A DNA stretch of 64,000 nt from a virus. The position numbers were made by a program, and so were the translations under genes. The stretch lies in IMG/VR virus record IMGVR_UViG_3300044644_000945, positions 1 through 64,000 of that record; one strand, given 5' to 3'. The notes beneath the pieces were generated by a model. The model had not been told where the DNA came from and did no database searches. It worked only from the letters and a program-made list of their open reading frames with translations. This document shows, in pieces, positions 2,277 through 53,660 of this stretch. Each line of letters opens with the position of its first letter. Position 1 is the first letter of the stretch.

Positions 2277-5200
2277 ATGAGTTTATCATGTCCTATAGGT
2301 CCAGAGTTTGATGCATTAGTATCAGATTTAAAAAGTACTGCAGCTGCTAGAGCTGCTGTTGCTTTGAATAATGATGTCATACCTGATACTGCTACAGCAC
2401 AAGCACTTTTAGATGCTACACTTTTAGTAAATGAAGATGATAAAATTCGCAAATCTAATGATGCATTTACTTTAAAGAAGATGCAAGAAGAACAGATTAT
2501 GTTAGAAATTTTAAAATCTAATGTAAAAACTAAAGCACAAACTGCTGCTATTAAAGGACTTATTAATTCTAATAAAGAATTTCAAATTGCTTTAAATAAA
2601 AGTATAAAAGAAGGAATACCTGTAAACAAAAACTCTGTTACAAATCTTATAGGTTCTAACTTTGTTGGTGATGCATCTCAATTTGAAAAAACAAAAAGAT
2701 TTGGAATATTTGTACACAACTTTGCAGATAAAGTTATCAAGATAGCTAATGAAGATAATAGAAGAATTAGTGACATAGTTGGAGATTATAAATTCTTTGA
2801 AGATGAGTTAGCTACATTCTATAAAGAAAACTACTTTCAATTAGAAAATTTATCTGATAAAGAATTGTTTAACATGGTAAGAGATGTAGTTGAAAAAATA
2901 GCTGCATTAAAAGGTACAGAACATATTATTATACCAGAGCTTACTGTAATTGGAAAAGGTAGATCAGAAGATAGTTTTATCATAGGTAGAATTGACTTAC
3001 TTGCAATAGACACAAATGGTAAGTTTAAAGTTTATGATTTTAAAACTAAAAAAGTTAGTAATCTTATAGGTGACAAAGATCCTCTTATTGATGGTGTATT
3101 AGAATTAGACAATGTTACAAGAACATTGATGAGTATGACAAATAAAAACTTTCCTACTCTGACTAAAGCTGAAGACATTGTTGCTAAAAAAGCATCTATT
3201 AATATATTAAAAGCTAGTAATTATAAAAGAACTGTATATGACACATGGTCTTTACAGCTTATGTTATATGAAAACATTCTTAAACAATCTGGATTACAAA
3301 AAGGAGGAGACTCTTCTATTGTTGCTTTATTCTATGAGATGGATAAAACTAACACTAGAATGTTAGGAAGAGCTGTACACATGTTTGATACTGAAGATTA
3401 CTATGGTTATGTAGCAGGATTTCTTTCTATGGATAATGACAAGTTAGGTACACTACGTAATAAAGTTACTAAACTTAGAAATGCTGTTGAGTTTGAAATA
3501 CCTACTGGTGAAGAAATACAAGAGGAAGAAGAAAAGAAAGATGTAAAAATACTTGAGTTTTTACCTACTGCAGAACAGGATGAAAAAGTAATTCAAACAA
3601 TAAAAAACATGTTTGAATCACAAATACGTGATGTTCAGGTTAAACTACAGGATGCTAGAGATAAGAAAAAGAATCCAGCACTTATACGCGTGTTTGAAGA
3701 ACAAAAGAAAACACTAGAAGGGTTTTATGAAAACTATAATAAACCACATTCTATATCTGACAATCGTGTGATGCACAATTTTGCAGTAGTACATGAGATT
3801 ACCAGCAATGAAATAACTAAGTCTTTGACAGAAGCAACAGATGCTATTCTAAAATTTAGAAAATCTATATCTAATACACGTGAGTTTTTAAAACATTCTG
3901 AGGTAGTATCTCAAGTGTTTAAGAGAACAAAATCAATGTCTGAAGTTGTTACTTTATTAGATCAGGTAGTTAGAGATGCTATGCAAAATCCTGATAACAA
4001 ATTGGACCAAAATAGTGAGATTGTAAAAAAGATGAATGCTATAAAAACAAACATAGAAATTATAAACTCTATGTTTGCTGAAATAAGTTTAGAATCTACT
4101 GTTAAAATACTATCTTCATTAGGAGAAAAAAGTATGTCAAGAGTGCAAGAACTTTCTAAGGAACCTCTTGATATAGAAATCATGATGCTTGAAAGAAAGA
4201 TTCAAGATTTAAAAGATGGTAAAACTGCAGGATTTTTAAATAAGTTAAAACATGCAACATTAAGTATGTTAAGTAAAACATACAAAGATGGTTTCCAACA
4301 AAATCTTACACAACCTCAAAAAGATTTGATGACTCAAATTGAAGATTTAGAGTTTAAAATACTTACTCTTAGAGGAAGACAAAGTTTTAACTATGATGCA
4401 GACTCATTAAAAAAATATATAAATGCTGTTACAGATCCTACATCAGGATTATATATAGGAGCACAGGATATTATGAATCCAGATGGTGTTATGAGTGGTA
4501 TGATGTTAGATAATTTTATTGCATCTGCAGGTAACTCTGACATGATGATATCTGCATTTACAATGTTCTTAAAAAATGTAAAAAGCATTGCTGTAGAAAA
4601 TGTACAAGAAGATTTTGCTATCATGCAATTTGATAAAGTAAAAGGTGATCTGTTAAAAAAATACAGTTTACAACAGCTTAATGAAATGATGCATGAAGAT
4701 AGAACTACAAAAATCTTCAACTATGAAACAATGGAGGAGGAAGAAAAAACTGCAAGATATTTTGTAAAACCTACTTCTAATGAGTATGATAGAATCTATA
4801 AAGATTTCTCAAACCAGTATGCTAAAATTCAAAAAGAAATTAAGAGCTTAAAAGCTGCATTCTCTAGTAAAGAACCTGGTACACAGGAGTTTACAGATCT
4901 TGAAAAAGAATACTATGATAAGATAAATGAAAGAAATGTATTTACAGAAGCTAACATACAATGGCTTGTAGATAATACAAGTTTACCATACAAGGCAAAG
5001 TTTTATGAGTTCCAAAAGATGTTACCATTTGAAATCAGAAATGAACTTCAAAAGAAATATCATGAGATTGAAATTATAAAAGCAAGTCTTGATGTATCAT
5101 CAGAAGAGTTTTTAAGTGATGAAGATTTAGACAGATTAGAACAAATTGAGTATGAACTAAGACAGCTCAAACAGGAGGCTAAATTGCAAAATCCTAATTA

Positions 5201-8200
5201 TGAGAAGTATATAGATATGTTTAACCAGTTATATAAGTTTGTAGAAGACACAAACAAATATGAGTTAGCATATCAAAATGCAAAGATTAAATATGAGGTT
5301 GATGATCCAGAAAAATGGCAGAAATGGTTAGACAGAAATACTGTTATAAAACCTACTGATCAATGGTACAAAGATCTTAGTGATATATATGATGAAAGAA
5401 ATGCTATACTAAGTAAATACTATGGTGAAAATTTTGTATTACAAGGTTTATTTGAAGAAAGAAAAAACTTGTTAGCTCCACACAAAGTACTAGGTGAGCT
5501 TAAGATTAAAAACTTAGATGAAAATACTATTTTAAGACTAGATCAAATAGAAGTTGAAATCAATCGTGTTATTGAGTCAAGTGGTAAAACTAAAGTAAAA
5601 ATGGAAGCTGAAGATGCTGAAATGTTATCTGAGCTAAATATAATGTTAGATAGAATGTCTACCATGTCATTAGTAAAAGATTATGATCTGCAGTTTAAAA
5701 GTAAAACTAGAAACTTAGAAAACAAGTATGCTAATTATATTAATGCATCTGTTGCATATCAGTTAGAAAGAGATTCTGCAACACCAGAAAGATTAGCTGA
5801 GTTAGAATCTGACTATTTAAAATATGAAAATCAGTTTTTTACATATGAGGCAGAGTTTAAAACTTGGTATGAAAGTTTTCACAATATAACTTATAAGTCT
5901 ATTAGAGAAGATGAAAGTTATTTTAAAGATAACAGGATACCTAAAGATTTTAATTATCAAAGAACTGTATCTGATGAAATGAAGTCTGTATACATGGAAG
6001 AAAAACCAGGTGGTAGATATAGAATTAAAACTCTAAGAACAGATGAGTATTATGATACTAGAACAGGTGAACAACTTACAGATGAACAAATAGAAAACTT
6101 TACTGATGCAGAACTAAATGAATTAGTTGCAACAGGTGAACTTGAGTTTATTGAAGGTGCATACAACAAAGACTTTTTAAAGTCTGCAGATGGTATTCCT
6201 ATGCCTAAAAACATACAAAAAATAGATGGTGTATACACTGTTATACCAGGTATGGAAAACATGATGGTAACAGATCCATTAACAGGTCAATCATTTCCTG
6301 CAGTAAATCCTAAATACATGCAGTTGATGAATAATCCTGAAGTATTTAATTTTTACAATCAACTTATGGACATGTACTTTAAACTACAAAATAAAGTTGA
6401 TGGTAGAAGAACAGGGTACTTAGTACCAGGTATGGCAGCATCTACAATAGAAAACTTTTCTACATTAGGTATAAGTGATAGTATTAAAAAACAAATGGAT
6501 ACCTACATAGATAAAGAACTTAGAGTTAAAGGTAGTCAACAAGACTATATTGACAACAGTTATGGAGCTTTAGGTGATGTAATAAAACTGTCTGGAGCTA
6601 ATCAGTTACCTTTAACATTACAAACTACTGATAGTATAGGTGCATTAATGCAATATGCAGGTGAAGCACATTATAAAGCAGCAATGCAAGAAGCAGCACC
6701 AGTTGCTAATATGACAATAGAATATCTTGAGATGTTATCTGGAAATATTCAAAATAAAATAGATGCAAAAGATTTTACATATATAGATCCTATTACAAAT
6801 AAAAAATCTACAGTAGACTGGAACAAAAGACTTAAAGAGATCAATAAAGTTATTGAGATTTTAAAATATGAAAAAAGAAAATTTGTAAATGGGCAAGCTA
6901 ACAATCCTGAAGAAAAAAACAGACAGCTTACAAAAATTGTTAAACAAGTAATGTCATATACAAGTTTTGTAAGGATGGGATTTGATGTTGTAAACCAGAC
7001 TAAAAACTACATTTCTGGTAATGTACAATCATTTCTTGCAGCAGGAGGACTTGATGATAGTTCACACTACTCTAAGCAAAACTGGATGTGGGCACAAAAA
7101 CAATTTTATGGAACTTTTATACCTAATTACTTTTCTGACTGGGGTAAAGTAAATGATGTGAGTGAGTCTACAATGCTATATAGAAAATTTAATCCTTTAC
7201 AAAAAGAATTTAATAAATATACAAAAGAAACAGCTGGAAGTACAGAAAGAAGAGCTATAGGTAAATTTATGAATCCTTCAGAACTTGCATACATGATACA
7301 AGAAAAAGGTGATGGAGCTATAGGTATAGTTGTAATGTATTCCATTTTAGATAGTTATAAATATAAAGTATTTACAACAGATGCTGCAGGTAACAAAGTA
7401 TATACTAAAAATCCAGATGGTACTGATAAAACAGTAAGTGCACATGAGGTGTATTATCAAGATGCTAATAAGTTATTACAGATAAGAAAAGATGTAGAGT
7501 TTACTAAAGAAGATGAAAAGTTTCTTAGAAATATTATTTATTCTGAAATGCGTAGAACACAAGGTAACTATGCATCATGGGACCAAACTAAATTTGAAGA
7601 AAACATCATTGGTAAATTAGTATTCTACTACAGAAAATATATCATACCACAGTTTTTAAACAGATTTGGATATCTAAGACCTAACTGGGAAGGTTCTGAA
7701 GTAACAATAGGTTATTGGAGAGCTTTGGCAAAAGTATACAAAGCATATGGATTTGTAGAAACTACAAAATACTTTTTTAACTTTGGTAAACAAGGTACAA
7801 AAGCTATTAGTACAGCAGCTATAGGTAAGTTATATACTAGAAGTATATCACATGCAAGAAGAGATTTTGTAGCAATGGCTATATTAACCATGGTTTCAAT
7901 GGCTGCTTTACAATATGTTAAACGTAAAGATGATGATGATGAAGAATTAGGATTCTTAGAAGGTAATGCTATAAGATTGTTATGGGGTGTAAAAGGTGAA
8001 ACTACTGCAATGTTTCCTTTAGGAGGAGGCTCTTCTGAATATATTAGAAACTTTACAAGTTTAACTACATATACGCGAGAACTTAATGCAGCTAAAAAAT
8101 TATCAACTCATGCATTAAGTACACTTGCAGCATTAAGCATGAATGGTGGTGAAGAACCAGATCCAGAATATGATAGTGAACTTTACAATGCAATATGGAA

Positions 8201-8348
8201 AGAAGCATACTATAATAGAAAATCAGGTGCATATGAAAAAGGAGATATGAAACTTACAAAAGATTTTGTAGACCTTACAGGATGGAAAAACTTTAGAGAT
8301 ATGTTAGATCCTAATTATAGAATTGACATACTGAAGCGTAACCAATAA
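2277..8348 (+). CDS. Giant (2023 aa) probable ejected virion/cargo protein with N-terminal PD-(D/E)xK nuclease-like domain
   Basis: GRIDLL...YDFKTK...QLMLY motif; long helical body with hydrophobic C-terminal segment; size and position match crAss-like cargo proteins. Confidence 0.65.
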   Translation: MSLSCPIGPEFDALVSDLKSTAAARAAVALNNDVIPDTATAQALLDATLLVNEDDKIRKSNDAFTLKKMQEEQIMLEILKSNVKTKAQTAAIKGLINSNKEFQIALNKSIKEGIPVNKNSVTNLIGSNFVGDASQFEKTKRFGIFVHNFADKVIKIANEDNRRISDIVGDYKFFEDELATFYKENYFQLENLSDKELFNMVRDVVEKIAALKGTEHIIIPELTVIGKGRSEDSFIIGRIDLLAIDTNGKFKVYDFKTKKVSNLIGDKDPLIDGVLELDNVTRTLMSMTNKNFPTLTKAEDIVAKKASINILKASNYKRTVYDTWSLQLMLYENILKQSGLQKGGDSSIVALFYEMDKTNTRMLGRAVHMFDTEDYYGYVAGFLSMDNDKLGTLRNKVTKLRNAVEFEIPTGEEIQEEEEKKDVKILEFLPTAEQDEKVIQTIKNMFESQIRDVQVKLQDARDKKKNPALIRVFEEQKKTLEGFYENYNKPHSISDNRVMHNFAVVHEITSNEITKSLTEATDAILKFRKSISNTREFLKHSEVVSQVFKRTKSMSEVVTLLDQVVRDAMQNPDNKLDQNSEIVKKMNAIKTNIEIINSMFAEISLESTVKILSSLGEKSMSRVQELSKEPLDIEIMMLERKIQDLKDGKTAGFLNKLKHATLSMLSKTYKDGFQQNLTQPQKDLMTQIEDLEFKILTLRGRQSFNYDADSLKKYINAVTDPTSGLYIGAQDIMNPDGVMSGMMLDNFIASAGNSDMMISAFTMFLKNVKSIAVENVQEDFAIMQFDKVKGDLLKKYSLQQLNEMMHEDRTTKIFNYETMEEEEKTARYFVKPTSNEYDRIYKDFSNQYAKIQKEIKSLKAAFSSKEPGTQEFTDLEKEYYDKINERNVFTEANIQWLVDNTSLPYKAKFYEFQKMLPFEIRNELQKKYHEIEIIKASLDVSSEEFLSDEDLDRLEQIEYELRQLKQEAKLQNPNYEKYIDMFNQLYKFVEDTNKYELAYQNAKIKYEVDDPEKWQKWLDRNTVIKPTDQWYKDLSDIYDERNAILSKYYGENFVLQGLFEERKNLLAPHKVLGELKIKNLDENTILRLDQIEVEINRVIESSGKTKVKMEAEDAEMLSELNIMLDRMSTMSLVKDYDLQFKSKTRNLENKYANYINASVAYQLERDSATPERLAELESDYLKYENQFFTYEAEFKTWYESFHNITYKSIREDESYFKDNRIPKDFNYQRTVSDEMKSVYMEEKPGGRYRIKTLRTDEYYDTRTGEQLTDEQIENFTDAELNELVATGELEFIEGAYNKDFLKSADGIPMPKNIQKIDGVYTVIPGMENMMVTDPLTGQSFPAVNPKYMQLMNNPEVFNFYNQLMDMYFKLQNKVDGRRTGYLVPGMAASTIENFSTLGISDSIKKQMDTYIDKELRVKGSQQDYIDNSYGALGDVIKLSGANQLPLTLQTTDSIGALMQYAGEAHYKAAMQEAAPVANMTIEYLEMLSGNIQNKIDAKDFTYIDPITNKKSTVDWNKRLKEINKVIEILKYEKRKFVNGQANNPEEKNRQLTKIVKQVMSYTSFVRMGFDVVNQTKNYISGNVQSFLAAGGLDDSSHYSKQNWMWAQKQFYGTFIPNYFSDWGKVNDVSESTMLYRKFNPLQKEFNKYTKETAGSTERRAIGKFMNPSELAYMIQEKGDGAIGIVVMYSILDSYKYKVFTTDAAGNKVYTKNPDGTDKTVSAHEVYYQDANKLLQIRKDVEFTKEDEKFLRNIIYSEMRRTQGNYASWDQTKFEENIIGKLVFYYRKYIIPQFLNRFGYLRPNWEGSEVTIGYWRALAKVYKAYGFVETTKYFFNFGKQGTKAISTAAIGKLYTRSISHARRDFVAMAILTMVSMAALQYVKRKDDDDEELGFLEGNAIRLLWGVKGETTAMFPLGGGSSEYIRNFTSLTTYTRELNAAKKLSTHALSTLAALSMNGGEEPDPEYDSELYNAIWKEAYYNRKSGAYEKGDMKLTKDFVDLTGWKNFRDMLDPNYRIDILKRNQ

Positions 8349-10778: not shown

Positions 10779-11069
10779 ATGCCAATTACAAGTACAAATC
10801 CAATAGAAGTAGATGGGAATGTTTACCCATATTTTATGGTTAATTTAGCAATATCACCATTAGTTAAACCAACTGATATAGGTGGTAGTGTAGCTATGAG
10901 ATTAACTCCTTATAGAGTGATAGAGGATGGGAGTTCAGTGAGTCTTCCTGACAATTCTATTCCTATAACATATATGGATGTTTTTGATAGTGGAGATTCA
11001 GATGCTATAAATGCAGCAGCAACAATTATGGGTGCATTGCAAACATTTATTAATGATAAAAATCTATAA
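10779..11069 (+). CDS. Small tail-associated protein (possible fibre chaperone)
   Basis: 96-aa ORF between fibre genes with A-rich leader. Confidence 0.45.
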   Translation: MPITSTNPIEVDGNVYPYFMVNLAISPLVKPTDIGGSVAMRLTPYRVIEDGSSVSLPDNSIPITYMDVFDSGDSDAINAAATIMGALQTFINDKNL

Positions 11070-11072
11070 TAG

Positions 11073-12806
11073 ATGGCTAATTATAGAGCAGTAGCATCAG
11101 GAAACTGGAGTAGTTTATCAACTTGGCAAGATGACAGTTTAGGTTATTTTGCTGCATCTACTGTTTTGCCTACAACAAATGATACTGTTTATTCAAATAA
11201 CTTTACAGTTACAATTGATGGAACAAGAGTAGCAAGTAGTATAAGAAATAGTACATTTACACCACCTACAACATTAGGAGCTGTTGCAACTGCAACAATG
11301 ACATCAAACACTACACCAAGTGGAATTGCTGCAGCAAGTGCTGCTCAATCTCCTGCTTGGCAAGCATTTGATAAAAATATTGCAACATTTTGGCAGACAC
11401 CTAGTTCAGGTCAAACAGGTTGGCTCTCATATCAATTTCCAACAGGAAAAATAATAAAAAAATATGGTTTTAATTCTGTAGCAACAATCACAATAAATCC
11501 AAAAACTTGGACTTTTGAAGGAAGCAATAATGGTTCAACTTGGACTGTATTAGATACACAAACAAATTTTCCTACACAAACAAATACCTTTTATTCGTTT
11601 GATATAAGTTCAAACACAACATCATATACATATTATAGAATAAATATAACTGCTACAACAGGAGGAGCATCAGGTATTGCACTTTATGAATTTGAAATGT
11701 CAGAGGTTACAAACCTTTATGGAAATGTAGTCGCAGGGGGTCAATTTATATTTGCTAATAATGGTGTATTAACTTGTAGTGCATCGCCTGCTATTGTTGT
11801 AGGAATAGCATCAGTTCCTGTTTTAGAAATGACTTTAGCAAACCCTAACACTGCTACTTTTAACGGAAGTGTTTTGACAGTGCCTAATAGTATTAACTTT
11901 AATGTTATTAGACATTCAGGTACAGGAACATTAAATCTAAATGGAAATTATAATTTAGATGGTAGTACTGCTAGAGTATTAATTCAAGTGTCACTTACAG
12001 GAACCCTAAATATTGTAGGAAATGTTACAGGTACTTATGGAGCAAATTTTGCAAATACTGTAGCTATGACTGCAGCTGGAACACTTAATATTACAGGAGA
12101 TGTTTCAGGTAATAATACAACTTTTACAAATGCATCAACAGTTTCTGCAACTTTAGGAAATGTCAATATTACAGGAAATACAACAGCAAGTGTATCACCT
12201 GCTGTCTATATGAGTTCAGCTATTAATTATACACAAATAGGAAACGTAAATGGTTCAACAACTCAAGCAGCTATTTTTAATATAAATGCACCAGCAACAA
12301 TTTCTGTAACAGGAATAATTACAGCAGGCACAGGAGCACCAGCAATATATTCTTCTATTGCTCTTACAACTGGGTATGGTTCTGGTACTTTTGTAAAGAT
12401 TAGTGGAAATGTAGTTAATTCATCTAATATAATGGCTATTGTAGCACCAAGAGTAACAATAGACACAAATACTTCAAGTTGGTTATTTCAGATAAGTACG
12501 GGTGGTAACAGAACATTATATGCAGCAGGTGTAGCTTTAGGAAATCCTGCAATAGGAGATGTTAGACTTGGAACAGTATATGGAGCATCAAGTGAGCTTA
12601 CAGGTACATTAGCTATGCCTATACCTGCAACAGTGCTATTAGGTGTATTGACTGATGCTACAACTGGAACTTTACTTATGACACCAGCAGACTTTTGGAA
12701 CTATTTAATTTCAAGTGGATTTACTGCTAATAGTATTGGAGATAGGTTGCAAAACGCTGCAACAGTAGCAACAACAGGAGGACAAATAGCAAGTTATAAT
12801 ATATAA
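11073..12806 (+). CDS. Tail spike/fibre paralog A with inserted discoidin (F5/8 type C)-like domain
   Basis: Beta-helix-like NITG repeats; AFD...W...PKTWTFEGSNNG..W...YYRINIT discoidin pattern. Confidence 0.65.
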   Translation: MANYRAVASGNWSSLSTWQDDSLGYFAASTVLPTTNDTVYSNNFTVTIDGTRVASSIRNSTFTPPTTLGAVATATMTSNTTPSGIAAASAAQSPAWQAFDKNIATFWQTPSSGQTGWLSYQFPTGKIIKKYGFNSVATITINPKTWTFEGSNNGSTWTVLDTQTNFPTQTNTFYSFDISSNTTSYTYYRINITATTGGASGIALYEFEMSEVTNLYGNVVAGGQFIFANNGVLTCSASPAIVVGIASVPVLEMTLANPNTATFNGSVLTVPNSINFNVIRHSGTGTLNLNGNYNLDGSTARVLIQVSLTGTLNIVGNVTGTYGANFANTVAMTAAGTLNITGDVSGNNTTFTNASTVSATLGNVNITGNTTASVSPAVYMSSAINYTQIGNVNGSTTQAAIFNINAPATISVTGIITAGTGAPAIYSSIALTTGYGSGTFVKISGNVVNSSNIMAIVAPRVTIDTNTSSWLFQISTGGNRTLYAAGVALGNPAIGDVRLGTVYGASSELTGTLAMPIPATVLLGVLTDATTGTLLMTPADFWNYLISSGFTANSIGDRLQNAATVATTGGQIASYNI

Positions 12807-12818
12807 AAATATTTAATT

Positions 12819-14087
12819 ATGGCAGTAAGATATGCAGTAGCAAATGGTAACTGGAGTAATCCAGCAACTTGGGATGGTGGGACATTGCCAACAAGTGCTG
12901 ACGATGTGTTTGCAAATAACTTTACAGTAACTATTAATGGAACTTTTACTGTACTTACAATAAGAAATGTAAGCAATACTACACCTCCTGTTGCTAATGG
13001 TGGTGGATTTACATTTGCTAATGGTGCTGATTTAACTTGTACTGCGTCAAATGGTTTTGTTGTTAGAGACATATCAAATTTATATCTTTTAACTTTTGAT
13101 TTACCAAGTGGGCAAAGTGCTACATTAAGAGCAAATGCTCTTACTGCTTCTGTAGCTGCAAGTGGTAGAAATATTTTAGTACAGAATACTGGTACTTTTA
13201 ATATGGTTGGGGATTATAGTATGCAACAAGCTGCTTCTTCTAGTAGAGCCACAATTTTTGTAAATGGTTCAACAACTATAAATATAATTGGGAATATAAC
13301 TTGTTCACAAACTGGTTTAAACACAAGTGCAACTTTATGGGTAACTGCTGGGACACCTACAATAAACATAACTGGAAATGTAACTGGTGGTTTAACAAAT
13401 AATGTTAGTTTTGGCAATGGTATTTTTACACAATCTGCTTCTACTATAAATATAACTGGTGATGTAACTACAAATTTAACAGCCTCTATTTTAGTTGGCG
13501 CTGGTGCAATAAATGTAATAGGAAATGTAACTGGTGGGAACGCCTTTCCTGCTATTAATAATACTACAACTGCTGTAACAATTTCTGTAACAGGAATAAT
13601 AACTGCTGGAACAGGAGCTCCTGCTATTTATTCTGCATTTGCTTTAACAAGTGGATATGGCTCTGGAACATTTGTTAAAGTAAGTGGTAATGTAGTTAAT
13701 TCAACTAATAATATTGCAATAGTTGCACCAAGAGTTACTATTGATACAAACACGTCAAGCTGGCTATTTCAAATATCAACAGGTGGAGATAGGATTTTGT
13801 ATGCAGCTGGAGTACCATTAGGTAATCCTGTAGTAAGTAATGTTAGATTTGGAACTATTTATGGTGCATCAAATGAGTTAACAGGAACAATGAGAGTTCC
13901 TACTGCAGCAAATGTATTACAGGGAGTTTTAGTAGATAATACTGTAGGTACATTATTAATGACACCTGCTCAATGTTGGAATTATTTAATATCATCAGGG
14001 TTTGTAGCAAATAGTATTGGTGAGAGATTACAAAATGCTAGTACAGTATCTACAACTGGTGCACAGTTAGCATCATATAACATTTAA
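12819..14087 (+). CDS. Tail spike/fibre paralog B
   Basis: Shares N-terminus and highly similar C-terminal ~170 aa with 11073-12806. Confidence 0.65.
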   Translation: MAVRYAVANGNWSNPATWDGGTLPTSADDVFANNFTVTINGTFTVLTIRNVSNTTPPVANGGGFTFANGADLTCTASNGFVVRDISNLYLLTFDLPSGQSATLRANALTASVAASGRNILVQNTGTFNMVGDYSMQQAASSSRATIFVNGSTTINIIGNITCSQTGLNTSATLWVTAGTPTINITGNVTGGLTNNVSFGNGIFTQSASTINITGDVTTNLTASILVGAGAINVIGNVTGGNAFPAINNTTTAVTISVTGIITAGTGAPAIYSAFALTSGYGSGTFVKVSGNVVNSTNNIAIVAPRVTIDTNTSSWLFQISTGGDRILYAAGVPLGNPVVSNVRFGTIYGASNELTGTMRVPTAANVLQGVLVDNTVGTLLMTPAQCWNYLISSGFVANSIGERLQNASTVSTTGAQLASYNI

Positions 14088-48386: not shown

Positions 48387-48981
48387 AATATTTAATGATT
48401 TGTTTGTTAATTTTTTATTAGCACCCTCTTTCTTACACTGGGAAGTGATAGCAGCCTCACTGTTCGTATTCACTGTTCTGAAATAAGAGTAGGGTCAAGC
48501 TGAGAACTCATTTGTGTTGCTTTTTGGAAACCTCAGAGTATTTCATCATCATGGGTAATATTTACAAGCTTCTTAACCTATTCCTTTCTCAAGGGAACAA
48601 CACATCTACCATTACTGATAGTATCTTTATGTAAAACCACGCCAATTTGGCTAACTTTTTACAAAGGTTTCAATGTTTAACCTGTTTTGTACACTATATT
48701 ATACAAATATGCAAAAAAGCATGTAAAATGTATAATATAATGTACAGTTATTGTTACTAAAAGCGTGCTTTACAGGATGTCGCTTTTTGCCTGTGAAAAT
48801 ATAACAATATTATTACTTAGCTACTTCAAAGTAACCACAGAAGTAGCCATTTATTAATGTTTTATAAAACCTGACTGTTCTGTACCTGTTTTTTAGCAAT
48901 GTGTATGCTACAATGATTTCTTGATAAGTTCTTCTGATAAAATTGATAATTTTTGTTTTCATTTGATTTGTATAAGAGTTA

Positions 48982-49200: not shown

Positions 49201-49870
49201 TTGTTTGTTATTTGAGATTAAAAAATATGTGTTGCTCTCTTAGGTAAATTTTAACGTGCCAAACCTACATATAAGGCACAGGTGATTTTTCATCTATCAG
49301 TCTTAGAGCATTGACTGGTGACTACTTTCTTTCATAAAAAGCGGGTGGAAATAAAAATCATCATACTACATATAGTAATGATAATAGAGAATAAACATAT
49401 ATACTTACATACATAGTTTATGATAAAAGAACTAATTTTATGTTCTATTTACTGACTATCAGCTGTGTAGCTATATAGTCGCTGAATTTTTGTTGTTTTT
49501 GAGAAGATTTTTTGAGAGTTATAATAGTAGGAGAGTGGTTTTGTCATCATCTTAACCACTCTCTTGAACTATCATCTCAAACAAATAATGTTTCTCTTAA
49601 CTATCTCAGCTACAGAGAGTTAACTACTTATCAGTTGTGTTATTTATAGTAGTTACCATTGAAAAGAACTCTCACTGTTCTGTTGCATTATTCGCAATTG
49701 ACCCTCGTGCTGAGACAAAATTCTTTGCAGTATCTCTAACACATTCTACATATTACTGAGAATAGTGCAAGAAACAGTGTTGTTATCTTGTGAAAGAATT
49801 GTTTTTGTCTTATGTTGGAAAGAACTACACCCTTTTTCAGGGTGTGTTCTAACCTAATCAACTCAACTTA

Positions 49871-50425
49871 CTATGATGGTAAGTTGGCTGTTAACTGCTC
49901 TTGGGCAATTCTAAACGCATTCACTTCTTCAACATTGTTGTATTGCAACAATTTGTCTTTAGCTACACCTGTTGGGTCGTAGCTTGTGAAGCGCAGAATT
50001 CTGTTACCATTGTGTCTAAGCTCAATGCCTTCAGCACCTGTACGTTTAACAAACTTGGCAATAGCTGTTTCATATTCAGCTACTTCTTCAGCTGTATAAT
50101 CACTAACAGGAATTGCTTTCAATTCCTTTTTAATGTTCAGCCTGTTTTTAAGTTCAGGTCTGTTGTCAATATCAGCCTCAGAGATTTCTTCAATGTGAAG
50201 ACAACCCTGCATTTGATATTTCATTTTTGCAAGACTTGTTTCAAGCTTGCTAATCTCGCCACTAAACAACATAGATTTAGTGTTAGTGACGTGAAGACCA
50301 TTTGCTGTGAAACTTTCAGAAGTTTCTTCAACACGAAAATAACCACGTGGCTTGCTTGCGTCACGTTGAGTTTTGCTTGGTGTTACGTAGTCAACACCAT
50401 TCTTTGATTTACATACTGTAATCAT
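49871..50425 (-). CDS. Early hypothetical protein
   Basis: 184 aa; preceded by conserved leader; followed by hairpin at 49821-49850. Confidence 0.65.
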   Translation of the reverse strand: MITVCKSKNGVDYVTPSKTQRDASKPRGYFRVEETSESFTANGLHVTNTKSMLFSGEISKLETSLAKMKYQMQGCLHIEEISEADIDNRPELKNRLNIKKELKAIPVSDYTAEEVAEYETAIAKFVKRTGAEGIELRHNGNRILRFTSYDPTGVAKDKLLQYNNVEEVNAFRIAQEQLTANLPS

Positions 50426-50561
50426 AATAAGGATTTGTTTTAAAGTTATACTGAGCCTTTTGGGGGTGTGGTGGTGGTGTGTTGTTTTGCGCTCTGTTTG
50501 GTGGCGGTGTGGTGGTGTTTGTCTTTAAAAAGAGTGCTGTTGTTACACAGCACTCTTATTA

Positions 50562-50885
50562 TTACCATACAACAAGTACATCATTTTCAATTAGAAAATG
50601 TACTGTGTGACTTGGTACATAGTGATGGTTCTTTTTACCACGTACTGTAAATGTACCTCTGTCTACATCAAACCATTTGATTAGAGTTGTAAAATCTAAT
50701 AGTTTGATATCAAACAGTATTTGCCAAGAGTCATTTATCTTTCTTGTGGTAACTGTTTCAGATTGTTTGTTAAGTCTATCATGTAAGATAGATGCACCTT
50801 GTGAGCAACTTCCTGTTCTCACAAAGTTTACATTTTCAAAAGGGTTGATGATTTCTTTTGTACCAATGTTAAAATGCTGTGTCAT
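50562..50885 (-). CDS. Early hypothetical protein
   Basis: Conserved leader plus downstream hairpin. Confidence 0.6.
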   Translation of the reverse strand: MTQHFNIGTKEIINPFENVNFVRTGSCSQGASILHDRLNKQSETVTTRKINDSWQILFDIKLLDFTTLIKWFDVDRGTFTVRGKKNHHYVPSHTVHFLIENDVLVVW

Positions 50886-50973
50886 AATGATTATTTATTT
50901 AAAGTTATATATGTTGGGTGTTTGGTGGTTTGTGTTTAAAAATAAAGAGATGCTTTTACACATCTCTTTATCA

Positions 50974-51330
50974 TTACTCAGCTAATGCATAAGCTTTACT
51001 ATTCTCAGAATACTGTTCCCACTCATGTATGTTATATCCATTCATTATAAAGCGACTGAACTCAGCAATATTATATTCTTCATCAGATTTATATTTAAAA
51101 TCAGTTCTTGCTTCATTGTAGTATCTAAACTCAGCTGTTTTTACATTAACAATTTTATCCCAATGATTGTAAGATACAAACTTATACAGTTTGTCTTTGA
51201 TTACAGCTTCTTGGGATATTGCAGGTTCTGTATAAGTTCCATACAATACTTGCAAAGCAAGTTCAGGATTACCTGTTTGGTTAACTACTTGTAATAGTCC
51301 ATTTAAGTTTACTTCAATTGTTGTTTTCAT
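50974..51330 (-). CDS. Early hypothetical protein (start revised to ATG 51330)
   Basis: Conserved leader sits 12 nt upstream of 51330. Confidence 0.6.
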   Translation of the reverse strand: MKTTIEVNLNGLLQVVNQTGNPELALQVLYGTYTEPAISQEAVIKDKLYKFVSYNHWDKIVNVKTAEFRYYNEARTDFKYKSDEEYNIAEFSRFIMNGYNIHEWEQYSENSKAYALAE

Positions 51331-51397
51331 AATATTATTTGTTTTAAAGTTATACATATTGGTGGTGAGGAGGTTGTTGTGTACAATAAAAGTGTTG

Positions 51398-51628
51398 TTA
51401 AACAACACCTTTATGTACTACATTTTCTATTATACTAATGTTTAATAAATCAATGTTTTCTGATAGTAACCAATTGTTACCTGCAATTAGTTTTCCTACA
51501 ACAATTCTATGTTGTGCAATTAACCCATATATTTGTTCTTCTTCATTGATTATATCAATGATTACAAATTCTACTTTTACAATACCAAAAGGGGTGTTTT
51601 TTTCAATAATGACTGTTTCGTGTAACAT
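51398..51628 (-). CDS. Early hypothetical protein
   Basis: Conserved leader. Confidence 0.55.
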   Translation of the reverse strand: MLHETVIIEKNTPFGIVKVEFVIIDIINEEEQIYGLIAQHRIVVGKLIAGNNWLLSENIDLLNISIIENVVHKGVV

Positions 51629-51714
51629 AATTTATTTATTTAAGAGTTATATACTTTGGTGGTGTTGGGGTGCTGTCTTTAATGAAAAAGCAGGTTGTTA
51701 CACCTGCTGTTTTA

Positions 51715-52008
51715 TTAACAACCATAATGAGGATGTTCATCAAATGTTGGTTCATGTTCTTCAGGTTCTTCTAATTTTTGAAAACCTATGCCACAAACCA
51801 TGTAGAAGTCTTCATCATCTTGAATGACATCACCTACACATGTTGAACGAACTTCATTCATTGCCCAATCTACATGGTCATTTTGAGCATATTCAAACGC
51901 TTTCTCTAATGATGAAGCATTTACAAAACCTGCATAAACTCTTGGTTGACATTCAACTTCTTCAAATTTGTTGATACCTGTTGAATGAAAAATGTGATAC
52001 TGTTTCAT
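51715..52008 (-). CDS. YodL-like early protein
   Basis: LE.AF...Q...RSTCVGDVI...Y.V...GF. Confidence 0.55.
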   Translation of the reverse strand: MKQYHIFHSTGINKFEEVECQPRVYAGFVNASSLEKAFEYAQNDHVDWAMNEVRSTCVGDVIQDDEDFYMVCGIGFQKLEEPEEHEPTFDEHPHYGC

Positions 52009-52683
52009 GATAATATTTGTTTAAAGTTATTTTTAATGGTGGTGTTGTGGTTGTTGTAATAACAATAAAGCACACCTGAGGGTACAGTGTGCTTTATGTT
52101 ATAATAAATGATAATGCTTTGCTAAAGCTCCTTTTTGGTATTACATGTCAAAGCAATAAGACAACACCTTTAGTTAGTTAAGTACAATGCTCTTCAGCTA
52201 CATGTTAAATAATACTACACACTACAAGCACAGTCTGGGGGGAGCGACTATGCCTATAGTATATAATATTCTGCATTGCATCTGTACACAATACAATGGA
52301 ACAATGAAGCAGATTATTTTCTACTAAGCTATATTACTTAGTGTACTAACTCTCACCTGAGAAAGTTGGCTTCATAACATAATAACATTCTATACAGAAA
52401 CTTTTCCCAAAGTTATTCTATATTTTATATTATCATGCTGTATCAAGTGGGGGTATGGTGGTGCTTGTCTTTTGGCGTGGGGTGGTTTTGGTATACAGTA
52501 CTCACTTTCTCTTCCTCAGAAGTCCTGAAAAATACCAAAAATTTTTTTTGAAACACCAAGTAAAAAAACCCCAGCAGCACTGCCAGGGTTTCAAAGTCAC
52601 TGAGAGATTCAAACTCTCATCCATCAACTTTAGTTGACATGTTTATCTACTGTGGTATTTATTCCCACTTACACCAAATGACT

Positions 52684-53559: not shown

Positions 53560-53585
53560 GTGTTTTTTGTTTTAAAATTATTTTA

Positions 53586-53633
53586 CAAATATATAATAAA
53601 TTTGTAAAAGTTAAACTTTTCTTTATATATTTG
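53586..53633. promoter_or_regulatory. Divergent Bacteroidetes-type sigma promoters at the strand switch
   Basis: + strand TTTG (53601)-21 nt-TATATTTG (53626); minus strand TATATTTG at 53586-53593. Confidence 0.7.
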
Positions 53634-53660
53634 TAGTGTTAATTTAAATAAACAAAAAAC

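Follow-up and report, generated by a model that had tools for sequence, protein, structure and literature searches.

A probable counterpart of promoter-early stem-loop cassettes in a variable gene array of an uncultured crAss-like phage

Introduction

The hyperplastic regions of T4-type phages carry promoter-early stem-loop (PeSL) cassettes (Arbiol et al. 2010, PMC2839356; Comeau et al. 2014, PMC4122927). We describe here an array of similar design in the IMG/VR record IMGVR_UViG_3300044644_000945, an 88,324-bp contig (G000) rated 70% complete, the first 64 kb of which constitute the window analyzed and supply the coordinates used below. Five consecutive small genes on the minus strand of the window are each preceded by a repeated intergenic unit, in which a hairpin, a CA-rich box (C-box) and an A/T-rich motif (box 2) lead up to the ATG. 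As the best explanation of the whole, to which we assign a probability of roughly 55%, these repeats are composite intergenic joints of a hyperplastic ORFan region, i.e., the PeSL counterpart in a crAss-like phage.

The terminase, portal and major head proteins of G000 match phage families, and the best terminase matches among annotated phages are to crAss-like phages of Bacteroides, Flavobacterium and Cellulophaga (∼25% identity). G000 is an uncultured freshwater crAss-like phage with a Bacteroidota host. The relatives compared were G001 (contigs L008, L103, L105 and L096), the metagenome contigs L102 and L104, and G003, whose terminase is 72% identical to that of G000.

Other described systems resemble individual parts of the unit. 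The early promoters P1-P3 of phage N4 are read by the injected virion RNA polymerase; their hairpins have a stem of 5-7 bp and a 3-nt loop, and they carry conserved template-strand sequence close to the start site. In phage phi14:2, the counterpart of the block that holds our array belongs to the early class, is transcribed by the virion polymerase and holds two abundant non-coding RNAs (ncRNAs) (10.1101/2020.03.07.982082). The leader of T7 gene 10 contains the epsilon translational enhancer, UUAACUUUAA (PMC9590205). In Bacteroidetes, the start signature comprises adenines at -12, -13, -3 and -6 that raise translation, and the Bacteroidota -7 promoter element is TAHHTTTG, in which T-12, A-11, T-8, T-7, T-6 and G-5 are nearly invariant and which is separated from the start site by 4-5 nt (PMC6847099).

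Organization of the intergenic joints

A preliminary description of this DNA had reported five minus-strand units of hairpin, C-rich tract, A/T-rich motif and ATG, and all five were located where it had placed them. The order within a unit is constant: often tandem stop codons, then a hairpin with a U-run, a C-box ending in CACC or ACCC, a spacer, box 2 (TAACT(T/C)T(A/T)AA) and, after 10-13 nt, the ATG. The five consecutive genes begin at 52008, 51628, 51330, 50885 and 50425. The units, all on the minus strand, are as follows.

Unit U1, 52006..52095: hairpin 52067-52095, C-box 52038-52057, spacer 52030-52037, box 2 TAACTTTAAA 52020-52029, ATG 52006-52008.
Unit U2, 51626..51720: stops TAATAA, hairpin 51689-51708 followed by U5, C-box 51658-51676, spacer 51650-51657, box 2 TAACTCTTAA 51640-51649, ATG 51626-51628.
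Unit U3, 51328..51412: hairpin 51389-51412 with the stop codon of gene B in its loop, C-box 51361-51380, spacer 51353-51360, box 2 51343-51352, ATG 51328-51330.
Unit U4, 50883..50980: stops TAATGATAA, hairpin 50944-50969, C-box 50916-50937 (CCAAACACCC, the same as the G003 box), spacer 50908-50915, box 2 50898-50907, ATG 50883-50885.
Unit U5, 50423..50568: stops TAATAATAA, hairpin 50531-50556 followed by U5, long C-rich tract 50462-50522, 13-nt spacer containing TCAGTA, box 2 50439-50448, ATG 50423-50425.

Most of the upstream ORFs (open reading frames) close with tandem stops, such as TAATAATAA or TAATGATAA. A perfect hairpin followed by a U-run occurs in every unit; the stem sequences vary among the units, with the pairing kept. 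The stems measure 7-13 bp and the loops 3-11 nt, and the hairpins lie 60-110 nt 5' of the ATG. Their size, U-runs and distance to the ATG are those of terminators. Whole units have a minimum free energy of -13.8 to -24.8 kcal/mol, and the stretch from the C-box to the AUG is predicted to be unpaired (P 0.79-0.87). The distance from the end of the C-box to TAAC is exactly 8 nt in U1-U4 and 13 nt in U5.

An alignment of eight units from G000 and a relative produced a consensus that spans from the stop codons to the ATG, and CACC-N8-nAACTYTWAA is common to ten units. In the window, ATAACTYTWAA occurs seven times (1.34 expected), a number reached in 0 of 100 shuffles; five of these copies belong to the units. 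In the whole 88-kb contig, TAACTYTWA with an ATG at the right distance was found nine times (1.6 expected), and 8 of the 12 strongly CA-rich 20-mers fall within 50492-52494 on the minus strand. Among 80 terminase-linked loci, the exact motif occurred only in the G001 contig, while more distant relatives had versions of their own. In IMG/VR as a whole, CACCACC-N8-TAACTYTWAA gave 121 matches, nearly all of them chance occurrences in coding DNA, and true units were limited to G001 contigs.

Weaker copies had also been proposed near 48972 and 52409. Motif-like DNA is indeed present at both positions, but neither is a true unit, and each is a different thing.

48960..48981, minus strand: box 2 only (TAACTCTTA, match 48973-48981), within the 19 nt that separate two genes, the second a 49-aa ORF; no hairpin or C-box.
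52408..52494, minus strand: C-rich tract 52449-52494, then TTGATACAGCA, then TAACTTTG at 52408-52415; not a unit.

The TAACTTTG stretch is a perfect TAHHTTTG -7 box at the head of the ORF-free region of ∼52100-52400; 33 nt separate it from its C-tract.

Exchange of genes between relatives

The preliminary description regarded the region as a recombinational cassette array and proposed comparing the gene content between the repeats in related phages. This comparison bore out the idea: different ORFs stand between conserved units in G000, G001, L102, L104 and a contig from an RNA library, the gene order is not fixed, and homology ends at the edges of the units. The same pattern has been described for PeSLs by Arbiol et al. 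and Comeau et al. The genes of the array, all on the minus strand, and the arrangements observed (nc, non-coding) are listed below.

Gene A, 51715..52008: 97 aa, ORFan; 97% identical in L102, with a 45%-identical copy elsewhere in G001.
Gene B, 51398..51628: 76 aa, ORFan; 93% identical in L102, absent from G001.
Gene C, 50974..51330: 118 aa; distant homolog (27-30%) of the X genes in the same slot of G001, L102 and L104.
Gene D, 50562..50885: 107 aa, ORFan; replaced in L102 by genes Y and W.
Gene E, 49871..50425: 184 aa, ORFan; conserved anchor at the end of the array.

G000 (window): nc-A-B-C-D-E.
G001 (L008, L103, L105): nc-a'(33 aa)-X-E.
L102 (metagenome contig): Z1-A-B-X-Y-W-E, with seven units.
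L104: X-W-E, with W behind a hairpin that has no C-box.
RNA-library contig of 2214 nt: ORF-free region, unknown gene, A, X-like gene, U4, unknown gene.

The DNA shared among the four natural relatives is 80-92% identical. In G001 the flanks are ∼85% identical to those of G000; homology stops at the ATG of gene A, returns over U2, and returns again at the stops before U5, so that the homology blocks end at 52010, 51708/51626 and 50568. In G001, the genes on either side of U2 are unrelated, and U2 itself is conserved over 83 nt at 90% identity. The A-like gene of G001 is located elsewhere, between o49 and o114. In L102 the shared DNA is 87-92% identical, a homolog of 30% identity takes the place of gene C, two unrelated genes that of gene D, and the blocks end at 50977/50882 and 50557. 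The joint before U4 in L102 (1592-1640) contains a direct duplication of GCTTCATTGCTGTAATAA (gene end plus stops), which could be a trace left by recombination or slippage where two cassettes meet.

In total, at least nine gene families occur among the cassettes of the close relatives, and the gene content of the 48-52.6 kb interval as a whole differs from those of G001, L102 and L104. Proteins A-E matched no PHROG or Pfam family; the ESM Atlas yielded nothing for gene E, gene-by-gene IMG/VR searches yielded no relatives of B, C or D, and a blastn comparison of the array with the phage collection gave no match. Gene E is kept in relatives down to ∼30% identity, sometimes in two copies, and always with a C-rich leader 5' of it. 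Three homologs of gene A (L097-L099) lack a unit.

Two further length differences were observed outside the array. A second hypervariable spot (window 48410-48747 versus L008 8113-9181) has four small genes in G001, including the A-like gene, and ∼340 nt without ORFs in G000. Downstream of gene E, a 227-nt piece of the ORF-free region (window 49209-49436) is absent in L102 and L106, the flanks of which are 87-92% identical.

Box 2 and the start of translation

The A/T-rich motif ATAACTTTAAA had been put forward as a candidate promoter of the virion RNA polymerase. This assignment found no support, in that the motif coincides with a start signature found throughout the genome, one without a Shine-Dalgarno (SD) sequence, and recurs in operon junctions. 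An SD-like sequence precedes 0 of the 113 predicted genes of G000. In the same 113 genes, the frequency of A is 0.58-0.69 at positions -14 to -11 and 0.61 at -3. Of 108 genes, 19 have a TTAAA that starts at -18 to -14, and 14 of the 19 lie outside the array. Variants of the form TAAC(C)TT(T)AA are present in late-operon junctions of 22-33 nt and before the gene for the major head protein. The latter, at contig position 65551 (L100 1551-3200), carries TAACCTTAATTAA at -25 to -13, a relative of box 2, and its position recalls that of the T7 epsilon element, which also precedes a capsid gene. At 79228, a perfect host -7 box stands directly 5' of TAACTCTAAA, and the motif is therefore inside the leader there.

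Similar elements were observed in other phages. In phi14:2, g002-g004 have TAACAAYTAAAAC at the same place before the start codon, once within an 18-nt junction. In another phage group, the T-run of a terminator leads straight into AACTTTAAA-N11-ATG; one member of this group shares tail genes with G000. Within the array, UAACUUUAA is the same in U1, U3, U4 and U5 and matches 9 of the 10 bases of the T7 enhancer UUAACUUUAA. Judged from these sequence relationships, box 2 would be mainly, and first of all, a candidate translation signal.

Proposed function of the joints and expression of the array

In the proposed scheme, each joint would end the upstream gene, by means of a hairpin serving as intrinsic terminator or attenuator and of stop codons in more than one frame, and would supply the next gene with a ready-made, unstructured leader, in which the CA-rich box ends ∼29 nt before the AUG. 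The UAACUUUAAA element would set the adenines at -14 to -11, thereby acting as an SD-independent Bacteroidota start signal and a near copy of T7 epsilon. The repeated joint may, in addition, offer short homology for the exchange, gain and loss of whole genes among related phages, presumably by homologous recombination.

The array lies near the start of a long leftward block that runs on into the replication genes, with long ORF-free regions interleaved. The preliminary description had called the genes early; because of the synteny with phi14:2, the array region is probably early. It had also proposed an anti-host role, for which these ORFans may be candidates. As a working view, the array would be read mainly from upstream, i.e., from the host-type promoter at 52408-52415 and/or by the injected polymerase, with the hairpins attenuating.

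Relatives of the phage were found in three metatranscriptome runs from two studies, both runs of one study being labelled freshwater. Motif-bearing sequences are present in these RNA libraries. The data consist of Logan contigs, from which starts, ends, strand and levels are unreadable, and carry-over of DNA is possible. One such contig spans four units. Contig depth is higher for the ORF-free stretch 52133-52372 than for the pieces of A and D, although such depths cannot rank genes; 52422-52622 and most of E are uncovered, which is no evidence of silence.

Several observations weigh against the PeSL-like interpretation. Five to seven terminator-like hairpins stand in series upstream of gene E and the replication block; little expression would be expected beyond them unless transcription re-initiates, and true PeSLs have a promoter in each joint. 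The C-box is confined to the array and the head of the ncRNA-like region, in G003 as well, and is not needed by other well-expressed phage genes. In all 10 non-E units (G000, L102 and G001) it is separated from box 2 by 8 nt, with the spacer 56% and box 2 78% identical; this strict N8 despite a variable spacer looks like a two-part protein-binding site. A second RNA-library contig begins with TATAACTTTA of U1, 6 nt after the C-box, and continues through U2 into an X-like gene. Finally, no two joints within a genome share an exact stretch longer than ∼11-14 nt, little for homologous recombination to work on.

The C-box as a candidate promoter or control site

The C-box is the unusual part of the unit, and is a candidate early promoter element for an injected RNA polymerase. 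The distance from its end to the ATG is 27-30 nt in most of ∼20 units from G000, L102 and G003 (28-30 in the lineage of the window). In G003, eight consecutive small genes each have CCAAACACCC and then TAACTAA upstream; the motif has eight matches within 3.3 kb and one elsewhere in 112 kb, with 0 in reversed controls. There, the position of TAACTAA varies, at 3-8 nt past the box, but the box itself keeps a distance of ∼27 nt from the ATG. A C-rich leader precedes gene E in all relatives examined.

That the phage is crAss-like and would inject a polymerase was a premise of the preliminary description, and both its affiliation and the presence of a DFD[IV]D motif once in each of five relatives agree with this. 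The DFDxD motif is absent from the 88-kb G000 contig, whereas GAYTTYGAYRTNGAY occurs exactly once in each of the five relatives. In G001, the AGSDFDID sequence lies in a 3208-aa ORF (L096 335-9961, minus strand), immediately 5' of the ORF homologous to the first, truncated ORF of the window. Because of this position, the polymerase gene of G000 was probably cut off by the start of the contig. A giant DFD[I/V]D protein next to other giant proteins and tail genes, the context of phi14:2 gp66, is thus found in the family, and the 3208-aa product is likely to be the virion RNA polymerase, as judged by motif and neighborhood. The ORF is ∼1000 residues longer than phi14:2 gp66, with no detectable sequence similarity to it, and neither a single sequence nor a profile gave a sequence match to the two-barrel polymerase (PDB 6VR4). 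An AlphaFold2 model of the putative polymerase was poor (predicted local distance difference test score 46.6), Foldseek ranking 6vr4_A sixth (E 0.26), and in a second structural look (VIA) the matches were filled by coiled coils. Sigma-70 region 2 was not found in four genomes of the family.

The most probable of the alternatives, though itself rather unlikely, is that each unit carries an early promoter of an injected two-barrel virion RNA polymerase, which would recognise the C-box (CACCACC; AAACACCC in G003) together with the A/T-rich spacer. Transcription would start ∼6 nt past the C-box, and UAACUUUAAA would form the 5' end of a 21-25-nt leader and still serve as a translation signal; the earlier promoter idea is thereby kept, with the promoter shifted from the A/T motif to the C-box. 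The strict N8 spacing across a variable spacer sequence argues for this, as do the 27-30 nt between C-box and ATG in most units even though TAACTAA floats in G003, the clustering of the G003 motif (eight in 3.3 kb), and the C-rich heads that precede the ncRNA and gene E throughout the family. The serial terminators imply re-initiation, the start of one RNA-library contig falls 6 nt past the C-box of U1, sigma-70 region 2 is missing from the four genomes, and the DFD[IV]D giant protein is present in five of the five relatives checked. The early genes of phi14:2 are likewise read by the virion polymerase, with abundant early ncRNAs among the first genes, as in G000 (10.1101/2020.03.07.982082). 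On the other hand, the mapped early 5' ends of phi14:2 share no upstream motif, an RNA-library contig bridges four units including their C-boxes, every unit is coupled to an ATG and none heads a non-coding RNA, and gene W of L104 lies behind a hairpin without a C-box. The polymerase assignment itself derives from motif and gene context, with no PDB or PHROG sequence match.

A more specific proposal, that the C-box (CACCACC; AAACACCC or CTAAACCCC in relatives) is the core promoter and that each cassette is a self-contained module of promoter, leader, gene and terminator, is doubtful. If true, it would give this class of polymerases, whose promoters have yet to be defined, a definite consensus.

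Alternatively, the C-box could be a control site at the RNA level, either a landing site for ribosomal protein S1 or the target through which a phage nuclease, repressor or small RNA shuts down the early ORFans jointly, much as RegB acts at GGAG in T4 early mRNAs. This would be compatible with the PeSL-like interpretation and would refine it. The fixed 27-30 nt to the AUG, the predicted unpaired state of the tract and its restriction to one co-regulated gene set are consistent with such a role, and the long conserved ORF-free regions flanking the array could encode regulatory RNAs. It is nevertheless unlikely: neither a binding protein nor a complementary RNA emerged as a candidate, and the sole complementarity in the ORF-free region (AGGTGTTGT, ∼52170) covers 8 nt and could be due to chance.

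Host-type promoters

The preliminary description stated that the motif does not match the host sigma consensus. For the units this is correct: TAHHTTTG occurs in none of the five, which carry TAACTTTA (G-5 replaced by A) or TAACTCTT in its place, and no sigma-70 -35/-10 pair is found in them, apart from one low-scoring match that overlaps U1 (36 matches in the region in total versus 38 expected). The statement is too broad, however, since TAACTTTA is one base off TAHHTTTG and the copy at 52409 is perfect. Perfect intergenic -7 boxes in the sense orientation were found at 53593 (minus strand), 53626 (plus strand), 8346, 67634, 79228 and 52408-52415.

The divergent control region at 53560-53660 contains TATATTTG boxes at 53593 (minus strand) and 53626 (plus strand), arranged as a near-palindrome ∼30 nt before each ATG, and heads both the leftward and the rightward block.

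A function of box 2 as a weak host promoter, with TAACTTTA as a -7 variant, a start 4-5 nt downstream and leaders of ∼9 nt, is highly improbable: although TAACTTTA fits 7 of the 8 TAHHTTTG positions, the -33 element is weak anyway in F. johnsoniae promoters (PMC6847099) and the perfect boxes at 52408-52415, 53593 and 53626 indicate that the phage does use this promoter type, the nearly invariant G-5 is missing in all five units (T-7 also in U2), a ∼9-nt leader would lose the adenines at -14 to -11 and 87% of F. johnsoniae leaders exceed 10 nt, the whole motif lies inside an RNA-library contig, and box 2 variants occur within tight operons.

Several other roles were considered for the repeats. 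The tracts of U1-U4 (∼20 nt) are too short for Rho rut sites; Chi-like GGTGGTG recombination hotspots were set aside, as was a template-strand G-quadruplex, which would be pure speculation; and for integron-like capture no attC-type structure was seen, no systematic search for recombinase genes having been made.

Neighboring regions

The ORF-free region 52100-52400 (minus strand), with its head at 52408-52520, is ∼85% conserved with G001. Throughout the family, the head consists of GAGAGTGAGTAC, ∼45 nt of C-rich sequence and TACCCCCA, followed by yTGAtTCAGCA; in L011 and L015 this head precedes a 336-aa ORF instead. In its position, the region 52100-52400 resembles the abundant early ncRNAs of phi14:2. 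Rfam gave no match in the ORF-free regions. Upstream of the array lies the following feature.

52565..52592, minus strand: strong intrinsic terminator (12 pairs plus T-run) at the end of the o66-Trx-o69 unit and of a tRNA-like stretch that precedes the array.

The tRNA-like stretch (52600-52680, minus strand) is located between the o69 stop and this terminator and includes a T-arm look-alike (GAGAG-TTTGAAT-CTCTC), with no call by ARAGORN or Rfam. On the other side of the array, a ∼55-nt element at 48579-48635 occurs in many RNA-library contigs with unrelated flanks on both sides, and looks like a small element common to many phages.

Farther away, in the giant-protein block, a 2023-aa protein (window 2277-8348) carries a PD-(D/E)XK nuclease domain at residues 135-259 (Pfam E 5e-6), with nothing recognisable beyond it. 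The tail protein genes at window 10779-14087 share 62-93% amino-acid identity with L131 9657-11361, from a different phage group, which suggests the exchange of host-recognition genes between phages of one host.

Comparison with known systems

The PeSL-like interpretation would extend modular gene shuffling of this style from T4-type phages to a crAss-like lineage, in a host without SD recognition, where the portable joint would combine a terminator and a CA-rich box with an A/U-rich start element of the epsilon type. It would also correct a misreading, in that a conserved A/T-rich word ∼12 nt before the ATG in Bacteroidota phages would act primarily as a signal for translation. The C-box, with its fixed spacing, provides a precise candidate for the early promoter of crAss-like virion polymerases, and the array forms a natural catalogue of exchangeable, probably early ORFans (at least nine families in four close relatives) for function screens.

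Like the N4 promoters, the joints are a few repeated signals, with a hairpin nearby, that head what would be the first-expressed genes of a phage that probably injects its own polymerase. The G000 hairpins, however, have stems of 7-13 bp and loops of 3-11 nt, are unconserved in sequence and are followed by U-runs, and are thus not of the N4 type.

Box 2 (as (A)UAACUUUAA(A)) shares 9 of 10 bases with T7 epsilon and, like it, lies in the leader upstream of phage start codons. In contrast, the T7 element is directly 5' of a strong SD, whereas box 2 of G000 is at -22 to -12 with no SD, and the proposed pairing to 16S rRNA of E. coli need not apply to Bacteroidota. The cassette leaders agree with the SD-independent starts of Bacteroidota (Baez et al. 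2019, PMC6847099) in the lack of an SD, the A at -14 to -11 and -3, and the unstructured leader, but add the TAACTYTWAA word and the C-rich box, which are outside the described signature.

The closest parallel is with the PeSLs. In both cases a repeated intergenic element of ∼60-100 nt combines a terminator-like stem-loop with the expression signals of the next gene and flanks ORFans in a variable region, where whole ORFs are inserted, deleted or replaced with breakpoints in the repeats. In contrast to the PeSLs, the G000 joint contains no recognisable promoter of the sigma-70 or Bacteroidota type and no SD, with the epsilon-like A/U-rich start element instead; its CA-rich box at fixed spacing has no PeSL counterpart; and the phage is crAss-like with a probable injected polymerase, rather than a T4-type myovirus. 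The array would thus work like a PeSL system without a recognisable host promoter, to which a C-box and an epsilon-like start element have been added.

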